Source: Anaerolineales bacterium (lineage in GTDB: Bacteria; Chloroflexota; Anaerolineae; Anaerolineales; UBA11858). Taken from it: a stretch of DNA of 64,000 nt. The stretch spans positions 98,666 to 162,665 of the forward strand of contig JAWODY010000081.1 in assembly GCA_046483045.1 (NCBI GenBank). Reading direction: 5' to 3'. The notes beneath the pieces were generated by a model. It worked only from the letters and a program-made list of their open reading frames with translations. It ran no database searches and was not told where the DNA came from. The position numbers and the translations under genes were made by a program. Below, piece by piece: positions 1,907 to 55,639 of the stretch (the first letter of the stretch is position 1; every line of letters starts with the position of its first letter).

Positions 1907-3835
1907 TTAGACGTCTTCGAATTCGCCTTCAACCACGTCTTCATCATCCTCTGTCTCTTTGGATTGTCCCTCGGGGGCACCTGCGCCGGGCATCCCGCCA
2001 GGGCCTGCGCCCTGTTCACCCTCCTGCTGGTACGCAGCTGCGCCTATCTGCTGCAGGGACTGAGACAAGCTTTCCGTCAATTCATTCAAACGATCAGGAT
2101 CCGAATCCTCCTGATCTTTTTCCAGTGCTTCACGGATTTCGGAGATCTTGGACTCGACCTCGTTTTTCGCATCGCCGGGCACCTTATCTCCCAAATCGTT
2201 CAAGGTCTTTTCCGCGGTATACGCCATGTTGTCAGCGTTGTTCCGGGCTTGAATGCGGTCCTTGCGTTTTTGGTCTTCTTGGGCATGGGCTTCCGCTTCC
2301 TGGCGCATGCGTTCTACTTCGTCTTCACTCAGCCCAGAGGAGGCCTCGATGGTAATGTTCTGGCTCTTCCCAGAAGCTTTATCCTTCGCGGTGACCTCAA
2401 GGATACCGTTGGCATTGATGTCAAAGGTAACCTCAATCTGGGGCACGCCGCGGGGCGCGGGGGGAATGCCGTCCAGGATGAAGCGGCCCAAAGATTTGTT
2501 GTCATTCGCCATGGCCCGTTCGCCCTGCAGGACATGGATCTCAACCTGCGTCTGGTTGTCACTGGCGGTTGAGAAGGTCTGTGTCTCCCGGGCCGGAATG
2601 GTGGTGTTGCGCTCAATGAGAGGTGTGGCTACACCGCCCAGGGTCTCCACCGACAGGGTCAGGGGTGTGACATCCAGGAGCAGCAAGTCATCCACTTCGC
2701 CGCCCAGGACGCCGGCCTGAATGGCAGCGCCTACCGCCACGACCTCGTCAGGGTTTACGCCTTTGTGGGGCGTCTTGCCAAAGAATTCTGAGACCTTTTC
2801 CTGCACTGCTGGCATGCGGGTCATGCCGCCGACCAGCACCACCTCGTCGATGTCTTCAGGCTTCAGGTCCGCGTCTTCAAGAGCCTGCTTCACAGGCCCC
2901 ATAGTCTTCTCGACCAAGTCATCCGTGAGCTGCTCCAACTTGGCGCGGGTGATTTTCTGGACCAGGTGTTTCGGTCCTGAAGCATCTGCGGTGACATAAG
3001 GAAGGTTGATTTCCGTCTGCTGCGTGGTGGAAAGTTCGATTTTGGCTTTCTCAGCAGCTTCTTTCAATCGCTGCAGTGACTGACGCTGCTCTCGCAGGTC
3101 AATGCCCTGCTCCTTCTTGAATTCATCCGCCAGGTAGTTGATCAACCTCTCATCGAAGTCGTCTCCACCCAGGAAGGTGTCGCCGCTGGTGGACCGCACC
3201 TGGAAAACACCTTCGCCAACATCCAACACGGAAATGTCAAACGTGCCGCCGCCCAGGTCGTAGACTGCGATGACCTCGTTTTGTTTTTTATCGAGGCCGT
3301 AGGCCAGTGAAGATGCCGTGGGTTCGTTGATGATGCGCATGACTTCTAACCCAGCAATCTTCCCCGCGTCCTTGGTAGCATTTCGCTGGCTGTCATTGAA
3401 GTACGCCGGCACCGTGATCACGGCCTTATTGACCGGTTCGCCCAAGTATTCCTCTGCATCCGATTTGATCTTGGAAAGGATCATAGCCGAGATTTCGGGT
3501 GGGGAATATTCCTTATCCCCCATCACCACACGCACGTCCCCATTAGGCGCTTTTCTGACCTCGTACGAGACCATTTCCCGGGCCCTTTCCGATTCCGGGG
3601 TGTCATATTTTCTCCCCATGAAACGCTTAATGGAATTCACTGTGTTCTCGGGGTTGATCACCGCCTGGTTACGGGCGGGCCGCCCTACGATTCGTTCTCC
3701 ATTCTTATTGACCGCTACCACCGAGGGAACCAGACGGTCACCCTCTGCTGAAGGGATGATGGTCGGCTCCCCGCCTTCCATCACGGCGGCAGCTGAGTTC
3801 GTCGTTCCTAGGTCAATGCCGATTATTTTTGCCAT
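1907..3835 (-). CDS. dnaK: molecular chaperone DnaK (Hsp70)
   Basis: 642 aa. Contains [22 protein letters not shown] and an acidic C-terminal tail. Sits between grpE and dnaJ. Confidence 0.97.
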
Positions 3836-3917
3836 AGTCTAATCCTCCAAAGTTTAATCTTATGTTGATTATTTTCGAAATAATTGCTTATCATGACTGA
3901 TGCCATTTACCTTCCCA

Positions 3918-4529
3918 TCACGCTGCCACCCGGACCAGCGCTGGGCGTAAGATCCGCTCTCCCAGAGTGTATCCTTCCTGCAGCACTTCGATAATCTCTC
4001 CGCTCTCGTACTCATCGTTCTCTTCCTGAAACACAGCTTCATGACGGTTGGGGTCAAAGATCTCCCCTTCTGCTTCCATGGGCTCCACCCCTTCCCTCTC
4101 CAGCATGAGCTGCAGTTTTTTATAGATCAATTCAATGCCTTCCGCCCATTGTTCGCCTGGGCCAGATTCCGGTCGATCTTGCAATGCCCGCCCCAGATCA
4201 TCAGAGATATCTAAATACTTCTTGATAATCTCTCCTTTGGCTCGTTCATACATTTGTTCTCTTTCACGCATGATCCGCTTTTTGTAATTTGCGAATTCAG
4301 CGCGCGAACGCTGCCATCCATCCAGGTATTCCTGGGCCTTTTCCTCCGATTCGTCCAAAGATGCTTTTAAATCCTCAATCTCCCCGAGCGAAGCCTTTGA
4401 AGAAACCTCTTCTTCCCCCTCAAGAACCTCATCCTGGATGTCTTGAACCTCCTCTACATTCCCTTCCTGCGTTTCCTCTTCACTCTTTGATTTTGCATTC
4501 TTTATATCTACCTTTTTTTTCTTTGCCAT
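3918..4529 (-). CDS. grpE: nucleotide exchange factor GrpE
   Basis: 203 aa. Acidic N-terminus followed by a GrpE core (DGWQRSRAEFANYKKR ... GYTLGERILRPALVRV). Operon position is between hrcA and dnaK. Confidence 0.9.
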   Translation of the reverse strand: MAKKKKVDIKNAKSKSEEETQEGNVEEVQDIQDEVLEGEEEVSSKASLGEIEDLKASLDESEEKAQEYLDGWQRSRAEFANYKKRIMREREQMYERAKGEIIKKYLDISDDLGRALQDRPESGPGEQWAEGIELIYKKLQLMLEREGVEPMEAEGEIFDPNRHEAVFQEENDEYESGEIIEVLQEGYTLGERILRPALVRVAA

Positions 4530-4559
4530 GCTTTTTCACTTCTCCTCACTTGTGAACGA

Positions 4560-5600
4560 TCAACTCGCAACGGTTTCTGTAAGCAATTCGCTCATCAGGT
4601 CTGACACGAACCGCACCGCAGAGACCCCTCTGCTGTAGGACATCCGCATGGGCCCAATCACACCCACAGCACCCAAAGAGTGTTTTTCCGTCCCGTAGGG
4701 TGCCAAAATCACCGAGCAGTTCTTGAGTTCTTCCCAGTTCCCTTCCCCACCAATGATGATCTGAACACCACTGCTATCCCGCTCAAAAATTGTCTTGGAA
4801 AGCAAATCGTCCAGGACAGAACGATCCTCAAAAAGACGGAGGGTTTTTTGGGCTGCCGCAGGATCCGTAAACTCGGGCTCGGAGAGCACATTCGTCAACC
4901 CATCCCGATATACATTTCCTGTAGAGATCAGATCTGTATCCTCGATCTCTTCCAGGATCACGGAGAGCACTTCGTGCTCCACTTCATCTTCCGCCTCCTC
5001 GATCAAGACACGGAGGGTTTGAATGTCTTTGATCCTCTCATCCTGGTTTATGTTTTCTGCTATCCCGCTCAACCGATGCTGGGGGATCTGTTCCTCAAAA
5101 ACCAACGTCTGCTGCCTGACTTCCCCGCCCTCTAAAACATAAACGAGCAGGACCTGGCGCCCCCGCGTCGCCAATAAAGCCACATGATTGAGCCTGGCCT
5201 CATCCATATGAAGCGCAGTCACCAGGGAAGCTCCCTGGGTATGATTTGCCAACACAGAAGCTGACAGGGAAAGCCAATCATCCACATCATGCCGCGCTTG
5301 GTAAAACTGGTGGCGGATCATCTGCTGGATGTGGGAAGGCAATTCAGCCGGTCCCATTAACTGCTGCACAAAGAAACGGTACCCTACCCGGGTTGGTATC
5401 CTCCCTGCAGATGTATATGGCTGTTGAAGGTACTCGTAGTCCGTCAACACAGCCATCTCATTTCTTACCGTGGCAGAGCTAAAATCCAAGCGGTAATTTT
5501 TAACCAAACGACCCGAACTGACCGGCTCAGCTGTGTCCACATATTCCCGCACCACCAGCGCTAGAATGAGTTTTTGGCGTTCTGTCAGGGTTTCTATCAT
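4560..5600 (-). CDS. hrcA: heat-inducible transcription repressor HrcA
   Basis: HrcA-like sequence starting MIETLTERQKLILALVVREYV. I moved the start to the ATG at 5600 (M28 of the track ORF), because the longer ORF translates straight through the CIRCE operator at 5615-5641. Confidence 0.9.
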   Translation of the reverse strand: MIETLTERQKLILALVVREYVDTAEPVSSGRLVKNYRLDFSSATVRNEMAVLTDYEYLQQPYTSAGRIPTRVGYRFFVQQLMGPAELPSHIQQMIRHQFYQARHDVDDWLSLSASVLANHTQGASLVTALHMDEARLNHVALLATRGRQVLLVYVLEGGEVRQQTLVFEEQIPQHRLSGIAENINQDERIKDIQTLRVLIEEAEDEVEHEVLSVILEEIEDTDLISTGNVYRDGLTNVLSEPEFTDPAAAQKTLRLFEDRSVLDDLLSKTIFERDSSGVQIIIGGEGNWEELKNCSVILAPYGTEKHSLGAVGVIGPMRMSYSRGVSAVRFVSDLMSELLTETVAS

Positions 5601-5614
5601 AAATCTCGTTGATT

Positions 5615-5641
5615 TTAGCACTCTCACCAAGAGAGTGCTAA
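5615..5641. promoter_or_regulatory. CIRCE operator (perfect consensus)
   Basis: TTAGCACTC-tcaccaaga-GAGTGCTAA equals the TTAGCACTC-N9-GAGTGCTAA consensus. It lies 15 bp upstream of the hrcA start. Confidence 0.9.
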
Positions 5642-5652
5642 CAACGGTTGTT

Positions 5653-5681
5653 ATGTTAACACGAGGAGGTTTAGCAGTCAA
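5653..5681 (-). promoter_or_regulatory. putative sigma-70-type promoter of the hrcA operon
   Basis: On the minus strand: TTGACT (5681-5676), 17-nt spacer, TAACAT (5658-5653). The -35 is embedded in the upstream CIRCE-like dyad, and the perfect CIRCE lies just downstream of the predicted TSS. Confidence 0.5.
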
Positions 5682-5697
5682 GCAGGGAAAGTGCTAA
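5671..5697. promoter_or_regulatory. second, imperfect CIRCE-like dyad
   Basis: TTAGCAGTC-aagcaggga-AAGTGCTAA. Spacing is 9 nt. Its left arm is identical to that of the groEL CIRCE variant. Confidence 0.6.
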
Positions 5698-5749
5698 ACA
5701 AGGTGTTCTAACAGAAAATTAACACATCGAATTTCCCCCCAACTGGAGA

Positions 5750-6493
5750 TCAGGCGTCCCCGTCCCTTTCTTCCTGCAATGAAGCAAGGAAGGCCTCATC
5801 CTCCAGGGAAAGGTCAGCATCCTGTAGCAGTTCCGGTCGGCGTTTCCACGTCCGGCGGAGGGCCTGCTCCTGCCGCCAGCGGGCAATGCGCGCGTGATGT
5901 CCCGAGCGCAGCACCTCGGGCACCTGCCAGCCCCGGAATTCTGCTGGACGCGTATAATGAGGATGCTCAAGCAAGCCTGTGGCGTGAGAATCTTTCTCCG
6001 CAGCCTGGGGATCACCAAGGACGCCAGCGATCAAGCGGGTGAGGGCATCGATCAGCACCAAAGCAGGCAATTCTCCCCCGGTGAGGACATAATCCCCTAT
6101 CGAGATTTCATGAGTGACCAAATGCTGCCGCACACGTTCATCGACGCCTTCATAATGTCCGGCCAGCAAGGCCAGATGAGGGTACTCGCTCAAGGCCGCC
6201 GCCTTATCCTGCGTCAAACGCTCTCCCTGCGGCGTCATCAGCACCACCGGGCACCGGGGAGGGCGGCCAACCACTTCCTCCACAGCCCGAAAAATTGGCT
6301 CCGGCTTCATGACCATACCCCCTCCACCCCCGTAAGGCAGGTCATCCGTGACATGGTGTTTATCCAGCGCCCAATCGCGGATATCATGAAGGCCAACCTC
6401 CAAGTAACCCTCTTCTTGAGCCCGTTTCAGGATGCTGGCGTCGAGGTAGGGATAAAAAACCTCGGGGAAAAGCGTAAAAACGTCAAATCGCAT
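5750..6493 (-). CDS. trmD: tRNA (guanine37-N1)-methyltransferase TrmD
   Basis: 247 aa. Contains [13 protein letters not shown]...[11 protein letters not shown]...[20 protein letters not shown], typical of TrmD. Confidence 0.9.
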
Positions 6494-28668: not shown

Positions 28669-29617
28669 ACGTTGTATTTTTATCTTCTGTATTTACGAAA
28701 GGTGTCGTCACATCTGGTTGTGTTTCAAAAGTTCCTACCTGATAGGGCTGCTTCGCTCGAAAGTGAACGGCGACATGTTTGACCATCGCAAGCTGAAAAG
28801 CACACTGTACTGCGCCCACCCGTTCAAGGGCAGAGATGAGCTTTTTTTGATAGGTGCGGACCCGGAAAAAGGTTTTTTTCCGGCCGTGATGGGGTAATTT
28901 CTCACATAAAGCTGCGATATGATCTTCCAGGTTGGATTCCGCGGGGTCGATAATCAGGTCCATCAAAACCCCTTTTGGGCCTTCATGGAAAACCGTAAAT
29001 CCCACAAGCTCACCGTCCGCCCAAAAACTAAGCCCCTGGAGATCCTCTACCCGGGGCGGCGCTTCCACGCGCTGCACATCGCGGGGGATGACCTTCCGGT
29101 ATAAACGCTGGATCGCTTCACCTTCCCCTTTCGAAAAAGGGGTCCAGCCGGGCTGGGAGCGGTCGTGCTTCAGCGTTCCGGGAACCATCCATATCCACTG
29201 CTCCGCATACGCGCGGAATCCACTCTGGCGTAAACAATCCTTGAGAGGAGATTCCCGCTGCACTTCAGCCATAATATGGAACGCACCCCGCTCACCTGCC
29301 TGTTGGCAGAGATGAGAGATCACCCTCACCATCTGGACCCGGGAATCAGGATCGGCGGGCGCCAGAAACGTGAGCTGAGCTGAAGGTTTCTCTGGCGCGC
29401 GGTACATCTGGCCTACGGCAGGAGATGAATCCTCCACCGAGGATTGCCAGGTGGTAAAAATCCCGCTCCCGGGAAACACCAAAGAAAGCAGCACGCTGGA
29501 AAAAAACCCCGGGGCGTAGGTCAGGCGGAGGGTGTTATCCAAAAAAACCGCCCGATCCCGATATCGAATAAATGTCAACACATCACGCCAGGCAAAAGCT
29601 CGAGCCATAAATGACAC
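28655..29617 (-). CDS. hypothetical protein, possibly tandem GNAT-like folds
   Basis: 320 aa with no motif I can name confidently. Two segments resemble acetyltransferase beta4-alpha3-beta5 cores. The gene overlaps the downstream ATPase start by 14 bp and begins 3 nt after pdxT. Confidence 0.5.
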   Translation of the reverse strand: MSFMARAFAWRDVLTFIRYRDRAVFLDNTLRLTYAPGFFSSVLLSLVFPGSGIFTTWQSSVEDSSPAVGQMYRAPEKPSAQLTFLAPADPDSRVQMVRVISHLCQQAGERGAFHIMAEVQRESPLKDCLRQSGFRAYAEQWIWMVPGTLKHDRSQPGWTPFSKGEGEAIQRLYRKVIPRDVQRVEAPPRVEDLQGLSFWADGELVGFTVFHEGPKGVLMDLIIDPAESNLEDHIAALCEKLPHHGRKKTFFRVRTYQKKLISALERVGAVQCAFQLAMVKHVAVHFRAKQPYQVGTFETQPDVTTPFVNTEDKNTTYVKS

Positions 29618-29620
29618 CGC

Positions 29621-30223
29621 TTAGGCCTCCAAGGTCTTCTCCACCATGAAGAGAAAATACCGGTGAACGCGATCATCTTCCGTTAATTCTGGATGGAATG
29701 TCGTGGCCAATAGGTGATCCTGCTGGGCAGCGACGATCCGCCCATCTGGAAGGGTGGCCAACACTTCGGCGCCTTTTTCGACGGATTCAATCAGGGGTGC
29801 GCGAATGAAGATCGCATGAAATGGGGTCTGGTTAGCAGAAACGCGCGATAAAGTGGGGAAATCAATTTCCGTCTCAAAACTGGCAATTTGACGACCGAAC
29901 GCGTTTCGTTCCACTGTGATATCCATCAGGCCCAATAATGGCTGCTGGCGCTGTGCGTCTTTGGAAAGGAAGATCGCCCCAGCGCACGTGCCCCACACGG
30001 GTTGCGATCTACCAAAAGCTTTCAGCTCATCCAGTAAACCGAAATCAACGGCTAATTTTCCAATGGTCGTCGATTCGCCTCCAGGAATGATCAAGCCATC
30101 CACGTTTGCCAGATGATGAGGGAGGCGGACTTTTTGGGTCCGGACACCCAGCCTGGAGAGGGCGACCATATGTTCTGCGAATGATCCCTGCAAAGCCAAC
30201 ACCCCTATGTTCATTTTTTTCAT
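29621..30223 (-). CDS. pdxT: pyridoxal 5'-phosphate synthase glutaminase subunit PdxT
   Basis: IGVLALQGSFAEH, GTCAG (catalytic Cys) and a FHPEL motif. The start is set at MKKMNIGV. Confidence 0.9.
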   Translation of the reverse strand: MKKMNIGVLALQGSFAEHMVALSRLGVRTQKVRLPHHLANVDGLIIPGGESTTIGKLAVDFGLLDELKAFGRSQPVWGTCAGAIFLSKDAQRQQPLLGLMDITVERNAFGRQIASFETEIDFPTLSRVSANQTPFHAIFIRAPLIESVEKGAEVLATLPDGRIVAAQQDHLLATTFHPELTEDDRVHRYFLFMVEKTLEA

Positions 30224-30286
30224 ATTAACTCGGAACTTGGAGGCCCAGTGCAGGGAAGTCACGCAGGGTAAGATACGTCATTGCCA

Positions 30287-31174
30287 TTACCAACCCCGAT
30301 CGGCAATTTTTTCCTCTTCAGGCATGGTCGATATATTCCGTCCTACCATGGCCTCACCCAGGTTGCGGCTGACCTCCGCAAGGATCTCAGGGTCCTCGTA
30401 ATGTGTGACCGCTTTGACGACGGCATCTCCCCGTTTGGCTGGATTTCCCGACTTGAAAATGCCGGAACCGACGAAGACGCCATCCACGCCAAGCTGCATC
30501 ATCATGGCAGCATCCGCCGGGGTAGCAATCCCACCAGCTGCGAAATTGACCACAGGCAGACGGCCCAGTTCACGGGTTTCCACTACCAGATCATAGGGGG
30601 CGCCGATCTTTTTCGCAAAGGACATCAGCTCCTCGTCCGGCATGTTCTGCAGCCGCCGAATATCACCCATCACGCTCCGGGCATGGCGGACAGCTTCCAC
30701 CACATCTCCCGTACCCGCCTCGCCTTTGGTGCGGATCATAGCCGCCCCTTCTCCGATCCGGCGAAGGGCCTCCCCCAAGTTCCGGCAGCCGCACACAAAG
30801 GGGGTCTTGAATTGATGCTTATCAATGTGATGCTCTTCATCAGCAGGCGTCAAAACTTCGGATTCATCAATATAGTCCACTTCCAAAGCCTCTAAAATCT
30901 GGGCTTCCACGAAGTGACCGATGCGGGCTTTGGCCATCACCGGAATAGACACGCTCTCCATAATCTGGATGATCAACTCAGGGTCGCTCATCCGGGCTAC
31001 CCCGCCTTGATCCCGGATGTCGGCGGGAACGCGCTCTAAAGCCATCACTGCCACCGCACCCGCATCTTCTGCAATCTTGGCTTGATCAGGGGTGACCACA
31101 TCCATGATCACGCCGCCTTTCAACATCTGAGCAAGCCCTTTTTTGGTCGTAAAGGTACTGACTTGGGATTCCAT
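30287..31174 (-). CDS. pdxS: pyridoxal 5'-phosphate synthase lyase subunit PdxS
   Basis: [15 protein letters not shown]...[13 protein letters not shown]...[10 protein letters not shown] are highly conserved PdxS blocks. The start is trimmed to MESQVSTF. Confidence 0.95.
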
Positions 31175-31318
31175 TTTCAATCGTACTCCTGAACTACCAG
31201 AAACATTTAAACGAAGTTCCATGGACAAATCATGCGCATTGACACCTTGATACAAGGTAAAAATTTCATCTAGATTACCTTGATCTACATGAACAAAACG
31301 TCCATGGATTGCGAAGAG

Positions 31319-31347
31319 ATTCTACCATGCAAACCGGTGAGAAGCAA
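31319..31347 (-). promoter_or_regulatory. putative pdxS promoter
   Basis: Minus strand: TTGCTT (31347-31342), 17-nt spacer, TAGAAT (31324-31319) with a TGg extended -10. It leaves a ~140-nt leader. Confidence 0.6.
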
Positions 31348-31470
31348 ACACAGGGAAAACCACCCCTATTCCAATTTCCCCCTTCTGTGGATCCACGTTG
31401 AACACTCTCTCTCCGATGCTGCTCGGAAAGGCGTACAAACATTGCGGCGAAGTCACCCCTGGTTCAAACC

Positions 31471-31746
31471 TTAACGCTCTTCAACATTGATCCGAATCGC
31501 GGTCCGGATATTGCCGTCAATCTCGACATCCACAAACTCGGGAATGCTGATCACGTCATATCCATCCTCGGCCAGGTAATCACGGGCTAACGCCATCGCC
31601 TTGACCGCCTGGTTGACTGCACTGGCACCGATCGCCTGCACATTCGCAAACTTCTGTTCACGGAATATGCCTGCTATTGCCCCTGCAACAGCCGAGGTGC
31701 GGGAGGTCGCTGAAACCTTAATGATTTCCACATTGTCGGTATCCAT
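31471..31746 (-). CDS. spoVS: SpoVS-family protein
   Basis: IIKVSATSRTSAVAGAIAGIFRE...VQAIGASAVNQAVKAMALARDYL is a classic SpoVS sequence. The start is MDTDNV, preceded by GGGAGAGG. Confidence 0.85.
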   Translation of the reverse strand: MDTDNVEIIKVSATSRTSAVAGAIAGIFREQKFANVQAIGASAVNQAVKAMALARDYLAEDGYDVISIPEFVDVEIDGNIRTAIRINVEER

Positions 31747-31899
31747 GGTCCTCTCCCTGAGGTAAGACGCTAGATAGTCTCCCATTTCGGAGGAGTATTC
31801 ATTTTGTGTTATTCATTGTACATAATCCAGTAAGTTTTATCAAGCAAGAAACAATTCCACCCCACCGTTTGGACAACAAGCGGATTGTAACTTGATATA

Positions 31900-31928
31900 T
31901 TGATACACTTGACATTTATGGGTAAAAT
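31900..31928 (+). promoter_or_regulatory. putative promoter of the cupin gene
   Basis: TTGATA (31900-31905), 17-nt spacer, TAAAAT (31923-31928). It leaves a ~150-nt leader. Confidence 0.45.
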
Positions 31929-32088
31929 ACAAGAACGGAATCCCGGAGCGGAAAGGACAGTACGTGCTTTGCTGCCAGGACTCTGGCCTCACCCAGCGGT
32001 CCTGCAACCAAGGCATTTGAGAAACCTACCACCCGGGAAAGGCTCATTCACCCCGGTTGAAAAGCGGCTGTACTGCCAGGATATACCT

Positions 32089-32411
32089 ATGGAAAAAACG
32101 TACACTTTCTTAAAAACCTGCCCGTTTCAGATCAGGACGTTCCCCCGGACAGTATTCTCAGCAAGACTGTGTTTGAAGATGGAAGGGTGAAAGTTATCTT
32201 GTTCAGTTTCGCTCCCGAACAGGAATTATCAGAACATACCGCTTCCGTCCCGGCCATCCTTCACTTCCTTGACGGAAATGCCCATCTTGTCTCAGGGGAG
32301 GAGGAACAGGAAGCCGGCCCCGGCACCTGGGTTCATATGCCGGCCAATCTATCCCACAGCATTTTCGCAAAAAGCAACCTCACCATGCTCTTATATCTGC
32401 TCGAGCAATAA
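32089..32411 (+). pseudogene. cupin-domain protein, frame broken in an A6 run just after the ATG (or assembly error)
   Basis: ATG at 32089 is followed by GAAAAAAC. Adding one A (A6 to A7 at 32093-32098) would give MEKNVHFLKNLPVSDQDVPPDSILSKTVFEDGRVKVILFSFAPEQELSEHTA..., a complete ~107-aa cupin. As written, only an 80-aa GTG-started fragment (32169-32411) stays in frame. Confidence 0.6.
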
Positions 32412-32421
32412 ACCAACTCGC

Positions 32422-32594
32422 TTAACTTGACATTGTTAGATTAAAACATATGTTCTAATTTTAGGCGAAGGAAGAGTATTCCCGGCCCCTTTGATCCTAA
32501 AATTCATTCATTAGAGGCAGAGGTTTTGCCCATTTTATTCATTTTTTATTCATAATAATCGAACATCTGTGCTAATTTAACATTGTCAAGTTAA
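32422..32594. repeat. 173-bp TIR-bounded element, copy A (inverted relative to copy B)
   Basis: Begins TTAACTTGACATTGTTAGATTAAAACATATGTTC and ends GAACATCTGTGCTAATTTAACATTGTCAAGTTAA. Its reverse complement aligns with 52600-52773 at about 83% identity (hand alignment). Confidence 0.85.
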
Positions 32595-32609
32595 GTACAC
32601 CCAAAAAAC

Positions 32610-33374
32610 ATGCAAATCCTGGCCATCATTTCCGGTGAATACGGCAGGCGTCATGTAGGAAACATTACCACTCACGGGCCTCAAGAGTGGCATATAGAAA
32701 CCTGGCGGACGCCAAGGTCTTTCCCGCCCATCATTGATTATCCGGAGGATCACCTGCCGGACACCCTCCCGGAAGCGGATCTGCTGCTCTCTTTTGCTGA
32801 AGACAAAGGCGCAGCGGAACTGCTCCCCGAGATCGCCAAGATGACAGGGGCGAAAGCCGTGATCGTTGCTGTCGACGATGAGGGCTGGCTGCCGCGGGGG
32901 TTAGACCGGCAGCTCCGGGGCTGGCTGGAGGAACAAGGTGTGACCTGCGTGACCCCTAAACCATTATGCTCTTTGACCGAGAGCGAATACGGGGTAACCC
33001 AACAGAAAACCAGATCCTATCAAGACCCCTACATTGAAGCCTTCGCCCGGCACTTTGGGCGTCCTGAACTGGAACTCGAGATCGATCCGGAAACGAAGAT
33101 CATCGCCAGCGCTCAGGTCGTCCAGGACGTTGTATGCGGCTGTGCCCGCCACGTCGCGCAGGGCTTAATTGGCATATCCGTGAACGACGCGGAGGAGAAG
33201 GCAGGACTGCTGCATCACCATTATCCCTGCCTGGCGAGCATGAAGAAACTCCCCCATTTCAACCACGACACCCTGATGCACACGTCAGGTCAAATCCTGA
33301 AAAACAATGTTGCCATGCAGGTGAAACCTTACAAACACGTGCGGTACATCGAACCCGGAAAACGATCAGAGTGA
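32610..33374 (+). CDS. DUF166 (COG1810-like) family protein
   Basis: 254 aa. ILAIISGEYGRRH...IIDYPEDHLPDTLPEADLLLSF...LPEIAKMTGAKAVIVAV...CSL matches my recollection of the mostly archaeal DUF166 family layout. Function is unknown or uncertain. Confidence 0.65.
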   Translation: MQILAIISGEYGRRHVGNITTHGPQEWHIETWRTPRSFPPIIDYPEDHLPDTLPEADLLLSFAEDKGAAELLPEIAKMTGAKAVIVAVDDEGWLPRGLDRQLRGWLEEQGVTCVTPKPLCSLTESEYGVTQQKTRSYQDPYIEAFARHFGRPELELEIDPETKIIASAQVVQDVVCGCARHVAQGLIGISVNDAEEKAGLLHHHYPCLASMKKLPHFNHDTLMHTSGQILKNNVAMQVKPYKHVRYIEPGKRSE

Positions 33375-33611
33375 TCATGCCTTCTATCACATAAGCTTAA
33401 GGGCGGGGTTCTTGGAAACCCTTTTGTATCGGGTGAATAAGGAAAGGCCGCAAACATTTCTCCCTTTTCAAGATACAGTGAATACATACCGGAACAAGAT
33501 TGTCGTCCTGGAGGGACCGGATATGATCCGGTTCACCCACCAGGTTGGTCTTTTCTACAAACACCAGAAGAGGTCAGCCCGGGCCATGTCAAAAAGAAAA
33601 GGAAACCAGCC

Positions 33612-34601
33612 ATGGAAATTGCCATAGACATACACAATCTGACGAAATACTATGGAGATTTGCTCGCTGTGGACCAGATCAACTTCCAGGTCAAACGGGG
33701 AGAGGTATTCGGATTCCTGGGCCCCAACGGAGCAGGCAAGACAACCACACAGCGGATGCTGACCACCCTGCTGAAACCTACGGAGGGACGAATCCAGATC
33801 TACGGCCACGACCTGGCCCAGGACCCCATGCCCGTCAAACGGCGGATGGGGCTGGTGCCGGAGGAGTCCAACGTATATACTGAGCTCACCGCCTGGGGCA
33901 ACCTGTTGTTCACAGCCAAGCTTTACCGGGTACCTGCCGGCGACCGGGAACCACGCGCCCGTGATTTATTGGAGACGTTCGGATTGTGGGAAAAGCGCCA
34001 TGTGAAGGTGGAAGAGTTTTCCAAAGGGATGCGCCGCCGTTTGAGCATCGCCATGGCCATCATCCACAAGCCTTCCCTGCTCTTTTTGGATGAGCTCACG
34101 CCGGGGCTGGATGCCCAGAGCGCGCGAGCCATCCGGAAGATGAACCGCGATCTGAACGCGGAAGGCACAACTATTTATCTAACCACGCACCAGATCGAGG
34201 AAGCCAACCAGCTTTGCGACCGGGTGGCGATTATCAACCATGGACAAATCGCTGCCATCGATATCCCGGAGCACTTGAAAGCCGCCTTCCGAAAAGTGCA
34301 GTCAGTGGAGATAGCTCTGTCGCCGGACGGGCAAACTCATGGAGAGCGCCTTAAAACTCTTCCCGGCGTCAGCCAAGCGGTGAAGCGGGGGGACAAACGG
34401 CGGCTGTACACCGAGCAGCCTTCCGCGTTACTTCCCCGCCTTGTGGATTATGCTGAAAAGCAAAACGCAAAAATCGTCAGCCTGTGCACATTAGGGCCCA
34501 GCCTGGAAGATGTCTTCCTGCAGATCACAGGACAGGAAATCGGTGCTGTACAACATAAAACAAAAACTTCCAAGGGCAAGACCCGGAAAGGAGGACAATA
34601 A
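33612..34601 (+). CDS. ABC transporter ATP-binding protein (ABC-2/DrrA-type)
   Basis: Walker A GPNGAGKTT, signature FSKGMRRRL, Walker B LLFLDELTPGLD, and a C-terminal extension. Confidence 0.9.
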   Translation: MEIAIDIHNLTKYYGDLLAVDQINFQVKRGEVFGFLGPNGAGKTTTQRMLTTLLKPTEGRIQIYGHDLAQDPMPVKRRMGLVPEESNVYTELTAWGNLLFTAKLYRVPAGDREPRARDLLETFGLWEKRHVKVEEFSKGMRRRLSIAMAIIHKPSLLFLDELTPGLDAQSARAIRKMNRDLNAEGTTIYLTTHQIEEANQLCDRVAIINHGQIAAIDIPEHLKAAFRKVQSVEIALSPDGQTHGERLKTLPGVSQAVKRGDKRRLYTEQPSALLPRLVDYAEKQNAKIVSLCTLGPSLEDVFLQITGQEIGAVQHKTKTSKGKTRKGGQ

Positions 34602-35364
34602 TGAGTAGAGGGTGGATAACTCGTCTGCAAGATGAAATCAGCCAGGCCTGGACGGTGGCTGTCAAGGACGTCCGCGTGTACTATCTTACGCCCCCCATGA
34701 TCATGTTCGGATTAATGCTTCCCATTTTCCTCTTCTTTTCCTTTGCAATCAAACGCGAGATCGGCCTAGAAATAGGTCTGTCACGTCTGCTGGCCCTGAC
34801 CACATTCTTAACTGCTTCCTCCGCTAGCCCCGTGATCATCCCCCTGGAGCGGAGGGTCGGCACTTACGACCGCTTACTGACTGCCCCGATATCGCTGACA
34901 ACTTTACTGCTGGGCAAAACCCTGGTGGGTGCCTTCTTTGCCACACTGGTTTCTACGGCCCCTCTCCTGATCAGTATTTTGGGCCTAGGCGTTAAGTTGG
35001 CTGATGTGGGTTTGCTGTTTATAAGCGTTCCCCTGACCAGCCTTGCCTTCTCCGCTTTCAGCCTTGTTTTCGCCTCCATTCCCACTCGTTCAGTGGGCAA
35101 CATCATGAAACCCAGCACCCTGGTGCGCTGGCCGCTGGTGTTCATCAGCGGGATCTTCATCCCTCTGGAAGAGATGGCGCCCTAGGACCGAACCCTGGCT
35201 TACTTTTCCCCCTGACCTACGCCCAAGACCTGATGAACCACACCGTGCTGGGAAAAGGTTTCCTCAATCCCTGGATCAATGTCGCGATCCTGCCCCTGCT
35301 GCTCATCTTATTTCTGATTCCCGCCGTGTGCCTGCACCACCGGAGCCGCGTCATAGGGTATTAG
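34601..35364 (+). pseudogene. ABC-2 type permease disrupted by an in-frame TAG and a -1 frameshift
   Basis: The reading frame stops at TAG 35183-35185, where homologs have a conserved Trp (TGG). Thirty nt later a C5 run (35208-35212) needs one more C to continue as ...YFSPLTYAQDLMNHTVLGKGFLNPWINVAILPLLLILFLIPAVCL..., ending at 35364. Confidence 0.75.
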
Positions 35365-35472
35365 TACCAAGCCCTCCGACCTTCCTTTCCATGATATACT
35401 GGAGGGGTGGGTATACGATCCCAATTTGAGTCCTGTGGGGCGTTATTCTTATCCACAGACTTGGAGGTGGTT

Positions 35473-35844
35473 ATGAAACAGAGTAGAATGGCTGTCATCA
35501 TAGCGGTGGTAGGTGTGATATGCGCGGCCTGCACAGGGGGAGAAGAGATCCAGGAGCCGACCCAACCTGTTGAGGAGCCAGCCCAGTCCTCCGAACCCTC
35601 ATCGGAACCCATGGTCCAGGACCAACCGGTCGCGTCCTACTTTCAGGACAACTGCGCAAGGTGCCACGGTGAAAATCGGGAAGGGAGAAATGGGCCTGCC
35701 CTCCTGCCGGATAGCCTGTCACGGGATAATGCCTACTACCTTGACATCATCCGGAACGGCAAAAGAGGGATGCCATCCTTCGGGAGCAAGCTCAGTGATA
35801 AGGAAATCCAGATCCTGATCGACTTCCTGCGCACCGAATCCTGA
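35473..35844 (+). CDS. class I c-type cytochrome with N-terminal signal/anchor
   Basis: Start MKQSRMAVIIAVVGVICAAC is preceded by GGAGGTGG. One CxxCH heme site (CARCH) and a distal Met region (GKRGMPSFG). Confidence 0.8.
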   Translation: MKQSRMAVIIAVVGVICAACTGGEEIQEPTQPVEEPAQSSEPSSEPMVQDQPVASYFQDNCARCHGENREGRNGPALLPDSLSRDNAYYLDIIRNGKRGMPSFGSKLSDKEIQILIDFLRTES

Positions 35845-51807: not shown

Positions 51808-52603
51808 ATGAACATGAAAATACATCACCTGAACTGTGAGACCCTCCACGCACCCTTTGTCCACATCGACTCCCTGGTCTACTGCCTGCTGGTGGAATCC
51901 GGCAGCCGGTTGGTGCTGGTGGATACCGGCTTCGGCTTGAGGGATTACACCCAACCCACCCCAAAAACGCGTTTTTTCTGCACTACATGGGCGTCCCCCG
52001 AGACTCGGCGGAGACTGCCCTGCACCAGATCAGAGCGTTTGGATACCAGGCAGATGACGTGACCGATATCATCTGCACCCACCTGCATATCGACCACGCC
52101 GGGGGACTGTCCGACTTTCCCCGGGCGAACGTTCACATTTATGAGAAAGAATACTTGGCCGCTCAAAAGCCCCGGGGGATGATGGGATTTGCTTATGTTC
52201 AATCCCAATGGGCGCACGGCCCGCATTGGGTCTCCCATGAGCTGGGGGATGGAACTTGGTTCGGCCTGGACGCCATCCAGGTCCTAGCCACCCCGGAAGC
52301 ATTATTCTATCTGCTACCCCTGCCCGGTCACACCCCGGTCCCTGCGGGGCAGCCATCGGCAGCACAGGAAACTGGCTGCTGCACTGCGGGGATGCAGCCT
52401 CTCCTTTTCACCCCCTGACGGATCTGCATGACCGGGGCCCTGACGCTTACCGTTTATCCTTCTTTCCCAGGAAAATTACGGAAGGGTTGGCCGGCCCCCA
52501 CGCCTCGCGCCTGAAAGCGCTCTTGACCGAGCATGCCAGGGAGATCCGCGGGATCAGCTCACATGATATTTTCAGCTTCAAAGAATATCGCCAGACGCAT
52601 TAA
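51808..52603 (+). pseudogene. MBL-fold metallo-hydrolase split into three frames (two -1 lesions, or assembly errors)
   Basis: Three pieces are visible. Piece 1: MKIHHLNCETL...VLVDTGFG (frame 1). Piece 2: LHYMGVPRDS...THLHIDHAGG...LPLPGHTP (frame 2). Piece 3: G.CGAAIG...NWLLHCGDA...SFKEYRQTH (frame 3). The shifts map to the A5/T6 runs at 51963-51977 and the GG at 52337-52338. Confidence 0.75.
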
Positions 52604-52773
52604 CTTGACAATGTTAAATTAGCACGGATGTTCGACTATATTGAGGCAAAAAGTAAACAACATGGGTAAAAGCTCTGCTTCTAGTCAGGAAATTTTAGGA
52701 TCAAAGAGGCTGGAAAAATTCTTCTTTAGCCTAAACTTAGAACATATGTTTTAATCTAACATTGTCAAGTTAA
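52600..52773. repeat. 174-bp TIR-bounded element, copy B
   Basis: Begins TTAACTTGACAATGTTAAATTAGCACGGATGTTC and ends GAACATATGTTTTAATCTAACATTGTCAAGTTAA. It is the reverse-complement homolog of 32422-32594. It sits between the MBL stop codon and the clpC terminator. Confidence 0.85.
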
Positions 52774-52795
52774 AGGCATTTTTAATTAACAAAAA

Positions 52796-52825
52796 ACAGC
52801 GTGCTGACAAAAATCAGCACGCTGT
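52796..52825 (-). terminator. rho-independent terminator of clpC
   Basis: Perfect 12-bp stem ACAGCGTGCTGA/TCAGCACGCTGT with a 6-nt loop, followed by T6 on the minus strand. Confidence 0.85.
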
Positions 52826-52847
52826 TGTGATTTCCTGATCAGGGACC

Positions 52848-55373
<2,526 letters not shown>

Positions 55374-55639
55374 ACTAGCCAAAATGCAACCTCCTGCAAC
55401 AACTCGGGGGTTCCCCCGAATTTCAGTTGCGATTGTAATAGAGAGAATTCTTGCTTACTGGTAAAAACATTCTACCAAAGAAAGCCCTCAAATATTAGGC
55501 CAGTGCCTTTTTTAATAAAAATATAATAAATATTCCTTCCCGGGTCTTACAATTTTGTATGCAGTACGTGCATCCTTTCACAAAACCCCCAGGACAGAAA
55601 AAAAGCGCACCTGGTTAGGGTGCGCTGTCTGCTACAGGG

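Follow-up and report, generated by a model that had tools for sequence, protein, structure and literature searches.

A 165-bp miniature element with IS701-type ends and a recA-type operator-like dyad lies between the cupin and DUF166 genes of an Anaerolineales bacterium

Examining 64,000 nt of DNA from an Anaerolineales bacterium (UBA11858; contig JAWODY010000081.1, positions 98,666–162,665, forward strand; this whole stretch is called the window below), we found that the segment between a cupin gene and a DUF166 gene, hereafter element A, is best explained as a whole by a MITE (miniature inverted-repeat transposable element), namely one of 165 bp derived by internal deletion from a 1,653-bp insertion sequence (IS) of the IS701 family, a reading to which we give a probability of about 0.9. 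Element A is of a known kind, an IS701-family MITE with a TTAA duplication, notable for the recA-type operator-like dyad in one of its ends, and is not a native promoter or operator module. It has terminal inverted repeats, a small size with neither transposase nor open reading frame (ORF), a target-site duplication with a matching empty site, dispersed copies, and an autonomous element with the same ends. A preliminary description of this DNA had offered three identities (a MITE, a convergent small-RNA cassette and a transplanted operator/promoter module), the first of which was the right one, as indicated by the empty site, a second copy in the window (copy B), the copies of a further genome and the parent IS. 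Numbers beginning with L designate the loci collected for comparison: loci bearing the tip of the element, recA contigs, relatives of the cupin–DUF166 locus and further IS copies. In window coordinates, the parts of element A are:

32422–32425: left TTAA of the 4-bp target-site duplication; a single TTAA in relatives L088–L091, with L088 2980–2983 aligning to both window copies
32426–32590, + strand: the 165-bp body of MITE copy A, which holds no ORF; the closest relatives lack it at their syntenic locus
32591–32594: right TTAA of the target-site duplication, by the same alignment to relatives
32422–32458, + strand: arm of right-inverted-repeat (IRR) type, 37 nt with TTAA; blastn identity of 100% with the 1,653-bp IS (L026+L032) at its transposase-distal end
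32427–32454 and 32444–32455, + strand, both within the IRR-type arm: TTGACA-16-TATGTT (promoter scan) and the weak dyad AAACATATGTTC (sequence)
32457–32465 / 32496–32504, + strand: interior 9-bp perfect stem (repeat finder), without similarity to the parent IS
32516–32550, + strand: weak hairpin GGCAGAGGTTTTGCC and T-rich tract, a terminator-like match
32533–32594, − strand (read inward): arm of left-inverted-repeat (IRL) type, 62 nt over 63 columns; 87% identical to the transposase-proximal end by blastn and aligned with other IS IRLs
32561–32574, + strand: dyad GAACATCTGTGC then TA, a putative LexA operator by comparison with the recA-promoter consensus
32573–32578, + strand: −10-like TAATTT after the right dyad, facing DUF166 (sequence)

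The insertion is apparent from the relatives of the locus. The nearest homologues of the DUF166 protein belong to Anaerolineales, the closest (P0121) being 93% identical, and the contigs encoding this closest one (L088–L091) are syntenic, with SNO, SNZ, SpoVS, cupin, DUF166, ABC ATPase and ABC-2 permease genes. At the site of element A these relatives, ~94% identical in DNA, have one TTAA, and the cupin stop is 31 nt from the DUF166 ATG; their spacer reads ACCAACTCACTTAAGGTACACC, whereas the window reads ACCAACTCGC-TTAA-(165 bp)-TTAA-GTACACC. By blastn, L088 aligns in two segments, 1–2983 with window 29442–32425 (95.0%) and 2980–6223 with window 32591–35838 (93.1%), which in the relative overlap by four bases, TTAA, and in the window stand 165 bp apart. 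Element A has been inserted, in this strain, into the single TTAA of a ~30-nt cupin–DUF166 spacer. An ancestral 165-bp segment, precisely deleted in the relatives, appears unlikely because the TTAA is duplicated. The preliminary description had guessed at a TTAA duplication and suggested a search for empty sites; the search was run, and the lack of the insert in L088–L091, with their single TTAA, confirmed the guess. The exact 30-mer of the predicted empty site of copy A had no match in a metagenome scan, and exact-sequence look-ups of the window DUF166 protein and of P0242 found neither on record.

The length of the duplication agrees with the family, for which a highly conserved target duplication of exactly 4 bp is documented (PMC2266710). 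Among 37 complete elements in the collected loci, 21 were flanked by TTAA/TTAA, a tally in which one flank was fixed by the search pattern for such elements; one element not selected by the pattern had TTAT/TTAT, and a full IS (L095–97) is bounded by TTAG/TTAG. A 2-bp duplication of TA would give the same junction at TTAA sites and is disfavoured by the TTAT and TTAG pairs and by the documented 4 bp, while placing TTAA inside the inverted repeat, with the duplication farther out, was rejected as no direct repeats occur beyond TTAA. The outer palindrome TTAAC-N8-GTTA(A/G) of the preliminary description does not hold as a unit, for it takes in the TTAA of the target duplication, and position 18 of the tip varies freely (A, G, C, T).

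The anatomy described for the sequence was confirmed throughout. The 34-nt arms match at 29 of 34 positions by direct reading, and the repeat finder reports inverted arms of 43 nt (32421–32463 / 32553–32595) that are 81% complementary; the T-rich tract at 32531–32550 is present, element A ends at 32594, 15 nt before the DUF166 ATG at 32610, and the interior stem is perfect, at 9 bp instead of the 8 bp first given. The arms far exceed chance, since a 34-mer and a 22-mer recur at 52600–52773 where shuffled sequences expect 0. The only ORF listed near element A is a chance 55-aa one on the minus strand (32586–32753), which covers the last 5 nt of the body. Judged by its end types, element A has, on the + strand, its transposase-distal-type end first and its transposase-proximal-type end last; the proximal end adjoins DUF166 but faces inward, away from it.

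The two ends lead to a parent. Loci L026 and L032 lie on one contig and, joined, make up an element of 1,653 bp whose 502-aa ORF is intact; by blastn, nt 1–37 of the MITE are identical (100%) to the transposase-distal end of this element and nt 112–173 are 87% identical to its transposase-proximal end. This element is 79% identical in DNA to that of L006 (1,653 bp), with further related copies in L094 and L095–97. Profile scans (NCBIfam, Pfam) were run on L006 and L049, and the L026+L032 protein was placed through its tblastn likeness to the L006 ORF (77% identical). The L006 ORF matched Pfam DDE_5 (1.8e-40) as well as the NCBIfam IS701 profile NF033540 (7.6e-57), and L049 (1,477 bp, 444 aa) matched NF033540 at 2.6e-58 and also DDE_5; both NF033540 matches exceed the 150-bit cut-off, and database homologues bear the name IS701 family transposase. 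The tip adjoins IS701-family transposase genes in L006, L013, L032, L045 and L049, and transposase genes related by tblastn adjoin the same tip in L013, L045, L043, L039 and L046. Like the IS701 family (e.g. ISRso17), the parent thus has relatives (L006, L049) encoding a DDE_5 / NF033540 transposase, terminal inverted repeats, a 4-bp AT-rich duplication (TTAA, TTAG, TTAT) and a broad phylogenetic spread, while the element in the window, unlike family members, consists of the two ends only. Having no gene of its own, element A would presumably be mobilised in trans by the DDE transposase of a full-length IS, which would recognise the outermost 22–35 bp on either side and use TTAA-like tetranucleotides as targets, with a 4-bp duplication on insertion.

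The same unit recurs in the window and beyond it:

52600–52773, − strand: MITE copy B, a 166-bp body with TTAA on each side, in the opposite orientation to element A
52620–52633, − strand: dyad GAACATCCGTGC then TA, located in copy B's IRL-type arm; the recA promoter of the metagenome-assembled genome (MAG) CAZTWV01 (L031) has the identical dyad

Copy B aligns across the whole unit, interior included, and the likeness stops exactly at TTAAC...GTTAA. It sits between the stop of a + strand ORF (52256–52603) and the 3' end of clpB (52848–55382, minus strand), i.e. between convergent gene ends, and therefore adjoins no gene start. The Anaerolineales MAG CAZTWV01 holds one partial copy (L031) and four complete 173-bp copies (L002, L025, L033, L063), which are identical to each other in unrelated flanks and share 92% identity with copy A and 81% with copy B. 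The count of copies that the preliminary description called for covers the window, where it gave copy B, and CAZTWV01, with its four complete copies. A perfect hairpin of 12 bp (CAGCGTGCTGAC ... GTCAGCACGCTG), flanked by runs of A and T, separates copy B from the clpB stop (52790–52830) and is probably the clpB terminator.

Several observations weigh against an IS701-derived MITE, or against parts of that picture. No transposase gene was found in the 64-kb window by tblastn with the IS transposase. Nucleotides 38–111 of the MITE have no blastn-detectable similarity to the IS, so that a simple deletion cannot account for the whole interior. Copies A and B are only ~80–85% alike, and therefore did not arise in a recent burst here. 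The parent differs from the family in its length, ~100 bp above the quoted 1,400–1,550 bp (into which L049 fits), in its transposase, which shares no more than 31% identity with annotated IS701 transposases from plasmids, and in its tip, which has no obvious fit to the published partial end consensus (PMC2266710), although that consensus is said not to represent the whole family (De Palmenaer et al. 2008, PMC2266710). Promoter scans gave no confident placement of the IS transposase promoter. As regards the dyad, tblastn with E. coli LexA found no lexA homologue in the loci collected by then, and the putative LexA motif comes from recA promoters. Scans of viral contigs with the proximal arm and of metagenomes with the 23-nt distal-arm sequence gave no match.

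The interior bears on a second reading, a convergent sense/antisense small-RNA cassette or structured RNA gene, which we regard as highly improbable. Folded as RNA, the unit does form a long hairpin (−54.8 kcal/mol, z = −5.4), but such a fold is the trivial outcome of terminal inverted repeats. The preliminary description could match the unit to no RNA family, and the Rfam search then run found nothing relevant: no match at gathering score in the window, and at E <= 5 only chance-level eukaryotic matches in 31780–32700, none of them in element A. Furthermore, conservation among the copies is lowest in the interior, whose stem is only partly retained in copy B and the CAZTWV01 copies, and the copies are bounded by target duplications.

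A MITE also offers a source for the hairpin and T-rich tract at 32516–32550. In the full-length elements, a conserved outward promoter (TTGACT or TTGATT, 16 nt, TAGAAT) occurs at the transposase start codon (L032 1090–1180, L006 229–256, L094 319–346), and in L032 it is followed by a hairpin of −23.9 kcal/mol with a U-run (z = −7), opposite the translation start. The tract and weak hairpin of the MITE represent a degenerate remnant of this outward hairpin region; the stem is not conserved across the other MITE copies, and the remnant is oriented so as to hinder + strand transcripts toward DUF166. RNA-OUT of IS10 provides antisense control of the transposase. The parent resembles it in having an outward promoter (TTGACT-16-TAGAAT) at the transposase start and then a strong hairpin with U-run, but the likeness is architectural only, without sequence relation, in a parent IS known here from sequence, and the MITE retains just the degenerate tail of the RNA-OUT-like region.

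The outermost 22 nt of the element are far more widespread than the element itself. Scanning one genome per species with TTAACTTGACANTGTTANATTA yielded 81 loci (L001–L081) from Chloroflexota (Anaerolineales and others), Bacteroidota (Saprospiraceae), Cyanobacteria (pleurocapsalean), Poribacteria, Gammaproteobacteria (Thiomargarita, Parabeggiatoa), Methanosarcinales and a Jordarchaeia MAG, and the 22-nt end TTAACTTGACAATGTTAAATTA is common, at 100% identity, to families of ISs and MITEs from seven phyla or more. Many of these loci lie at contig ends, and directly inside the 22–24 nt the sequences diverge into unrelated interiors. Pairing of ends gave dozens of short elements (94–357 bp), again with unrelated interiors, and two long transposase-encoding ones (L006, L049); a 51-bp element in L015 (4827–4877) is barely more than two ends. 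Two further candidates for full elements, L055 and L005, were dismissed, their adjacent genes being unrelated (methyltransferase, endonuclease V, rve integrase). In L055 one IS701-type end (4200–4330) sits at a TTAA (codons L-N) and interrupts a transposase gene in the part coding for the N-terminus, which, judged by eye, starts like that of an IS5-family protein, and an apparently solo end (5577–5598) lies upstream of a cyclopropane-fatty-acid-synthase-like methyltransferase gene.

Since the tip is invariant across phyla, archaeal hosts included, its primary constraint is transposase recognition, and the outer 22 nt, TTGACA among them, are on this comparison primarily a transposase site. The −35-like TTGACA of element A would belong to this transposase-binding tip and be at most the −35 of the parent's own transposase promoter. 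Tips doubling as the −35 of a transposase promoter are seen in many IS elements, and this one may do so: the proximal end of L095 carries TTGACA-16-TATGTT toward the transposase gene, overlapping a perfect GAAC-CTAT-GTTC that holds the −10, and the tip is therefore plausibly able to act as a promoter. Other IS lineages have a poorer −10 at the proximal end, with no scan match on that strand.

The preliminary description read both arms as inward promoters and suggested that the left one might drive the DUF166–ABC genes, with the interior as leader, in a transplanted promoter/operator module. The + strand TTGACA-16-TATGTT was indeed returned by the scan, at 10 of 12 positions of the sigma-70 consensus, whereas TTGACA-16-GATGTT on the − strand is present but below the scan threshold. 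The left-arm match and the L095 arrangement speak for such a module; we nevertheless consider it very unlikely, the element being a MITE with the ends of a parent IS. The scan found 3 sites in 1.1 kb around element A against 1.9 ± 1.4 in shuffled sequences, which is not significant alone, and two features of the operon are relevant:

31900–31928, + strand: likely native operon promoter TTGATA-17-TAAAAT, upstream of cupin (promoter scan 10/12; kept in L088)
32610–33374, + strand: DUF166 gene, intact (Pfam PF02593, 2.1e-46), 15 nt downstream of element A

With an ancestral spacer of 31 nt, DUF166 is therefore an internal gene of its operon, and a strong promoter stands upstream of cupin. The left arm is of the transposase-distal type, an end that in the IS has no gene to drive; the hairpin and T-run remnant intervenes between this arm and DUF166; TTGACA is retained in archaeal hosts, which lack sigma-70; and copy B has no gene start beside it. 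Disruption of the operon points the same way. Compared with L088 and L092, the cupin gene (32090–32411) has a 1-nt deletion after codon 5, near 32106, so that the ATG frame stops at 32190 and the remainder lies in another frame, which makes it either a pseudogene or an assembly error. Compared with L088, the ABC-2 permease gene (34601–35361) has a TGG-to-TAG change at 35183–35185 and a 1-nt deletion near 35209, its ORF ending after 194 aa instead of 254 aa. Because cupin and permease are disrupted, the cupin–DUF166–ABC operon appears to be decaying in this strain, which argues against element A having been retained as a promoter. The insert lengthens the polycistronic RNA by 169 nt, and no positive role of the MITE in DUF166–ABC expression is indicated.

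Between the native promoter and cupin, a leader of ~160 nt is near-identical in L088 and partly alignable in L092. The region 31900–32089 has no Rfam match, its three sequences being too few for covariation, and it could be an unrecognised leader or riboswitch of the cupin–DUF166–ABC operon.

The dyad of the right arm calls for a closer comparison, made with the recA promoters of 8 Anaerolineae: two Anaerolineales loci (L031, L004) in which recA was found by tblastn with E. coli RecA, and six contigs fetched via RecA homologues. In L031 (MAG CAZTWV01) the promoter is TTGACG, 16 nt, TACACT, with GAACATCCGTGC within the spacer, and in L004 GAACAAATGTGC abuts TATAAT; overall, GAACAnnTGTGC stands directly before TATAAT, TAAAAT or TACACT in 6 of the 8. 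The right-arm GAACATCTGTGCTA (32561–32574) matches GAACAnnTGTGCTA, present in the same proportion of these promoters (6/8), and GAACATCTGTGC fits GAACANNTGTGCTA at 12 of 12 specified positions, copy B doing so at 11 of 12. With one mismatch allowed, the window holds only these two sites, where 0.08 is expected, and every occurrence of GAACANNYGTGCTA in the whole set used for counting (93 loci, ~640 kb) falls in one of six recA promoters or of five proximal arms of ISs and MITEs. The L031 recA promoter was also considered as a decayed MITE end and rejected, the likeness ending after 18 nt with no tip sequence. Downstream of the dyad-bearing promoter, ~40–70 nt upstream of recA, L082–L086 share a second conserved block, TGTAAACTATA (GTGTACACTATAAT in L004), which may be a second promoter or operator.

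These comparisons lend real support to the SOS-box idea of the preliminary description, but for the right arm only. In Firmicutes and Actinobacteria LexA has the motif GAAC-N4-GTTC, of which variants are reported from Chloroflexi and Cyanobacteria (PMC4951493). The right-arm GAACATCTGTGC is one base from this canonical box, yet it is not a defective Cheo box: it matches exactly the recA-type GAAC-N4-GTGC operator abutting a −10, and the G departing from GTTC may owe its conservation to making TGn before the −10 (an extended −10). The idea fares less well on the left, where AAACATATGTTC, also one base off the canonical box, is weaker, and its variant half is absent from the recA sites. The advised comparison with a LexA box taken from SOS-gene promoters was made with the Anaerolineae recA promoters, which gave GAAC-N4-GTGC as the putative box. 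Elsewhere in the window there is one perfect GAAC-N4-GTTC, within coding sequence and at chance level; looser dyad variants gave no further intergenic sites, and none of ten large window ORFs (Pfam: DnaK, GroEL, RNase J, LigA, PolX, SbcC-like and others) has a box upstream.

Conservation within the IS family can be set beside the recA match. In five IS lineages and in independent MITE families, the proximal arm has the form G(A/C/T)AC-N4-G(T/C)TC, with spacers GGAT, AGAT, AAGC, AAAC, CTAT, AATT and AAAT, and the MITE family L003/L030 carries a perfect CGAACAATTGTTCG. Over the five IS lineages, whose transposases are 72–100% identical, information content drops from 1.97 bits in the tip to 0.85 in the spacer, while the half-sites have 1.62 and 1.82 bits and the 10 nt after the dyad 1.78; conserved half-sites around a free spacer are the pattern of a dimer-bound operator. 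Distal arms have the dyad in weaker form (AAACATATGTTC) or have lost it (L095, L071), and the sister ISs L045 (66% identical transposase) and L013 (56%) are entirely without it. We see an even chance that the dyad of the proximal end serves the parent IS as a LexA operator, with the transposase under LexA control. The right-arm dyad would have been inherited from the transposase-proximal IS end, where its likeliest role would be that of a LexA operator coupling transposase expression to DNA damage, and in the MITE it would be a mere passenger.

Alternatively, the dyads may be merely transposase recognition or shared-descent sequence, their likeness to the recA operator being coincidental and LexA having no role, a possibility we rate a little below even odds. 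Both IS ends bear a version of the dyad and are inverted repeats of each other over ~35 nt, and the nearest sister ISs (L045, L013) have none. Coincidence fits poorly with the 12/12 match and its low expectation per window even with one mismatch, with the confinement of the motif to recA promoters and IS/MITE arms, with half-sites kept around a varying spacer before 10 conserved nt, and with the bias of good dyads to the transposase-proximal arm.

The right arm might itself be an outward, SOS-controlled promoter for DUF166, its GAACATCTGTGC-TAATTT copying the recA promoter core, in which a LexA box lies over TGC-TATAAT (extended −10). Where the recA promoters have GAACAnnTGTGC then TATAAT, TAAAAT or TACACT, the arm has GAACATCTGTGC then TAATTT toward DUF166, with the ATG 31 nt past the hexamer; moreover, of the five copies with a readable neighbour on the IRL side, four (A, L025, L033, L063) have this end pointing at the 5' end of that gene, with a start codon 15–50 nt away in three of those four. 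We still hold such a promoter to be unlikely. The arm has no TTG-type −35 at 16–18 nt, unlike every recA promoter examined, TAATTT agrees with TATAAT at only 3 of 6 positions, and four of five copies facing gene starts is not significant. Its TAAT derives from the ATTA of the universally conserved 22-mer and therefore needs no promoter explanation, and the operon served would be one that is decaying in this strain.

Among the CAZTWV01 copies, that of L063 (4377–4549) has its dyad-bearing end 21 nt upstream of the start codon of a gene for a protein that, judged by eye, begins like RecJ, and that of L025 (7618–7790) has it 50 nt upstream of the start of a membrane-protein gene.

The Correia elements of Neisseria are comparable bacterial MITEs. 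Element A resembles such elements, MITEAba12 of Acinetobacter among them (PMC6382973), in its class of size (100–300 bp), terminal inverted repeats and short AT-rich target duplication, in intergenic, co-transcribed copies that fold into hairpins, and in ends able to carry promoter-like hexamers or host-factor sites; unlike Correia elements and MITEAba12, it has IS701-type ends and a 4-bp TTAA duplication, with two diverged copies in 64 kb. LexA-repressed transposase promoters are known for ISCR1/ISCR8 but rarely documented (PMC13393415), and LexA repression of the Tn5/IS50 transposase promoter is cited there as debated. As in those elements, the end upstream of the transposase gene carries a LexA-type operator (putative here) that overlaps promoter-like hexamers. 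Theirs are Proteobacterial CTGT-N8-ACAG boxes in IS91-like and IS4-family elements, with evidence from electrophoretic mobility shift assays and reporters; the GAAC-N4-GT(G/T)C box of the IS701-family end, by contrast, is proposed from recA promoter comparison alone and is also carried passively by MITEs.

The MITE insertion itself is routine: it accounts for an odd intergenic sequence and marks a strain-specific insertion in an operon. It also documents IS701-type MITEs, which have few mentions in the searchable literature even though their ends span at least seven phyla, archaea included, and GAACAnnTGTGC next to a −10 is a first sequence-level proposal for an Anaerolineae recA operator. The IS family has possibly placed its transposase under SOS control, a regulation shown experimentally for few IS elements (PMC13393415). 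Going further, we tentatively propose, as something slightly more doubtful than not, that an Anaerolineales/Chloroflexota clade of IS701 elements has a working LexA operator in its proximal end, making transposition damage-induced, and that its MITEs copy this operator, with an outward recA-like GTGC-TAnnnT core, to new sites, seeding LexA boxes before host genes (DUF166 here, recJ-like elsewhere) and rewiring the SOS regulon. If this were true, MITE copies would be a ready means of spreading LexA sites.

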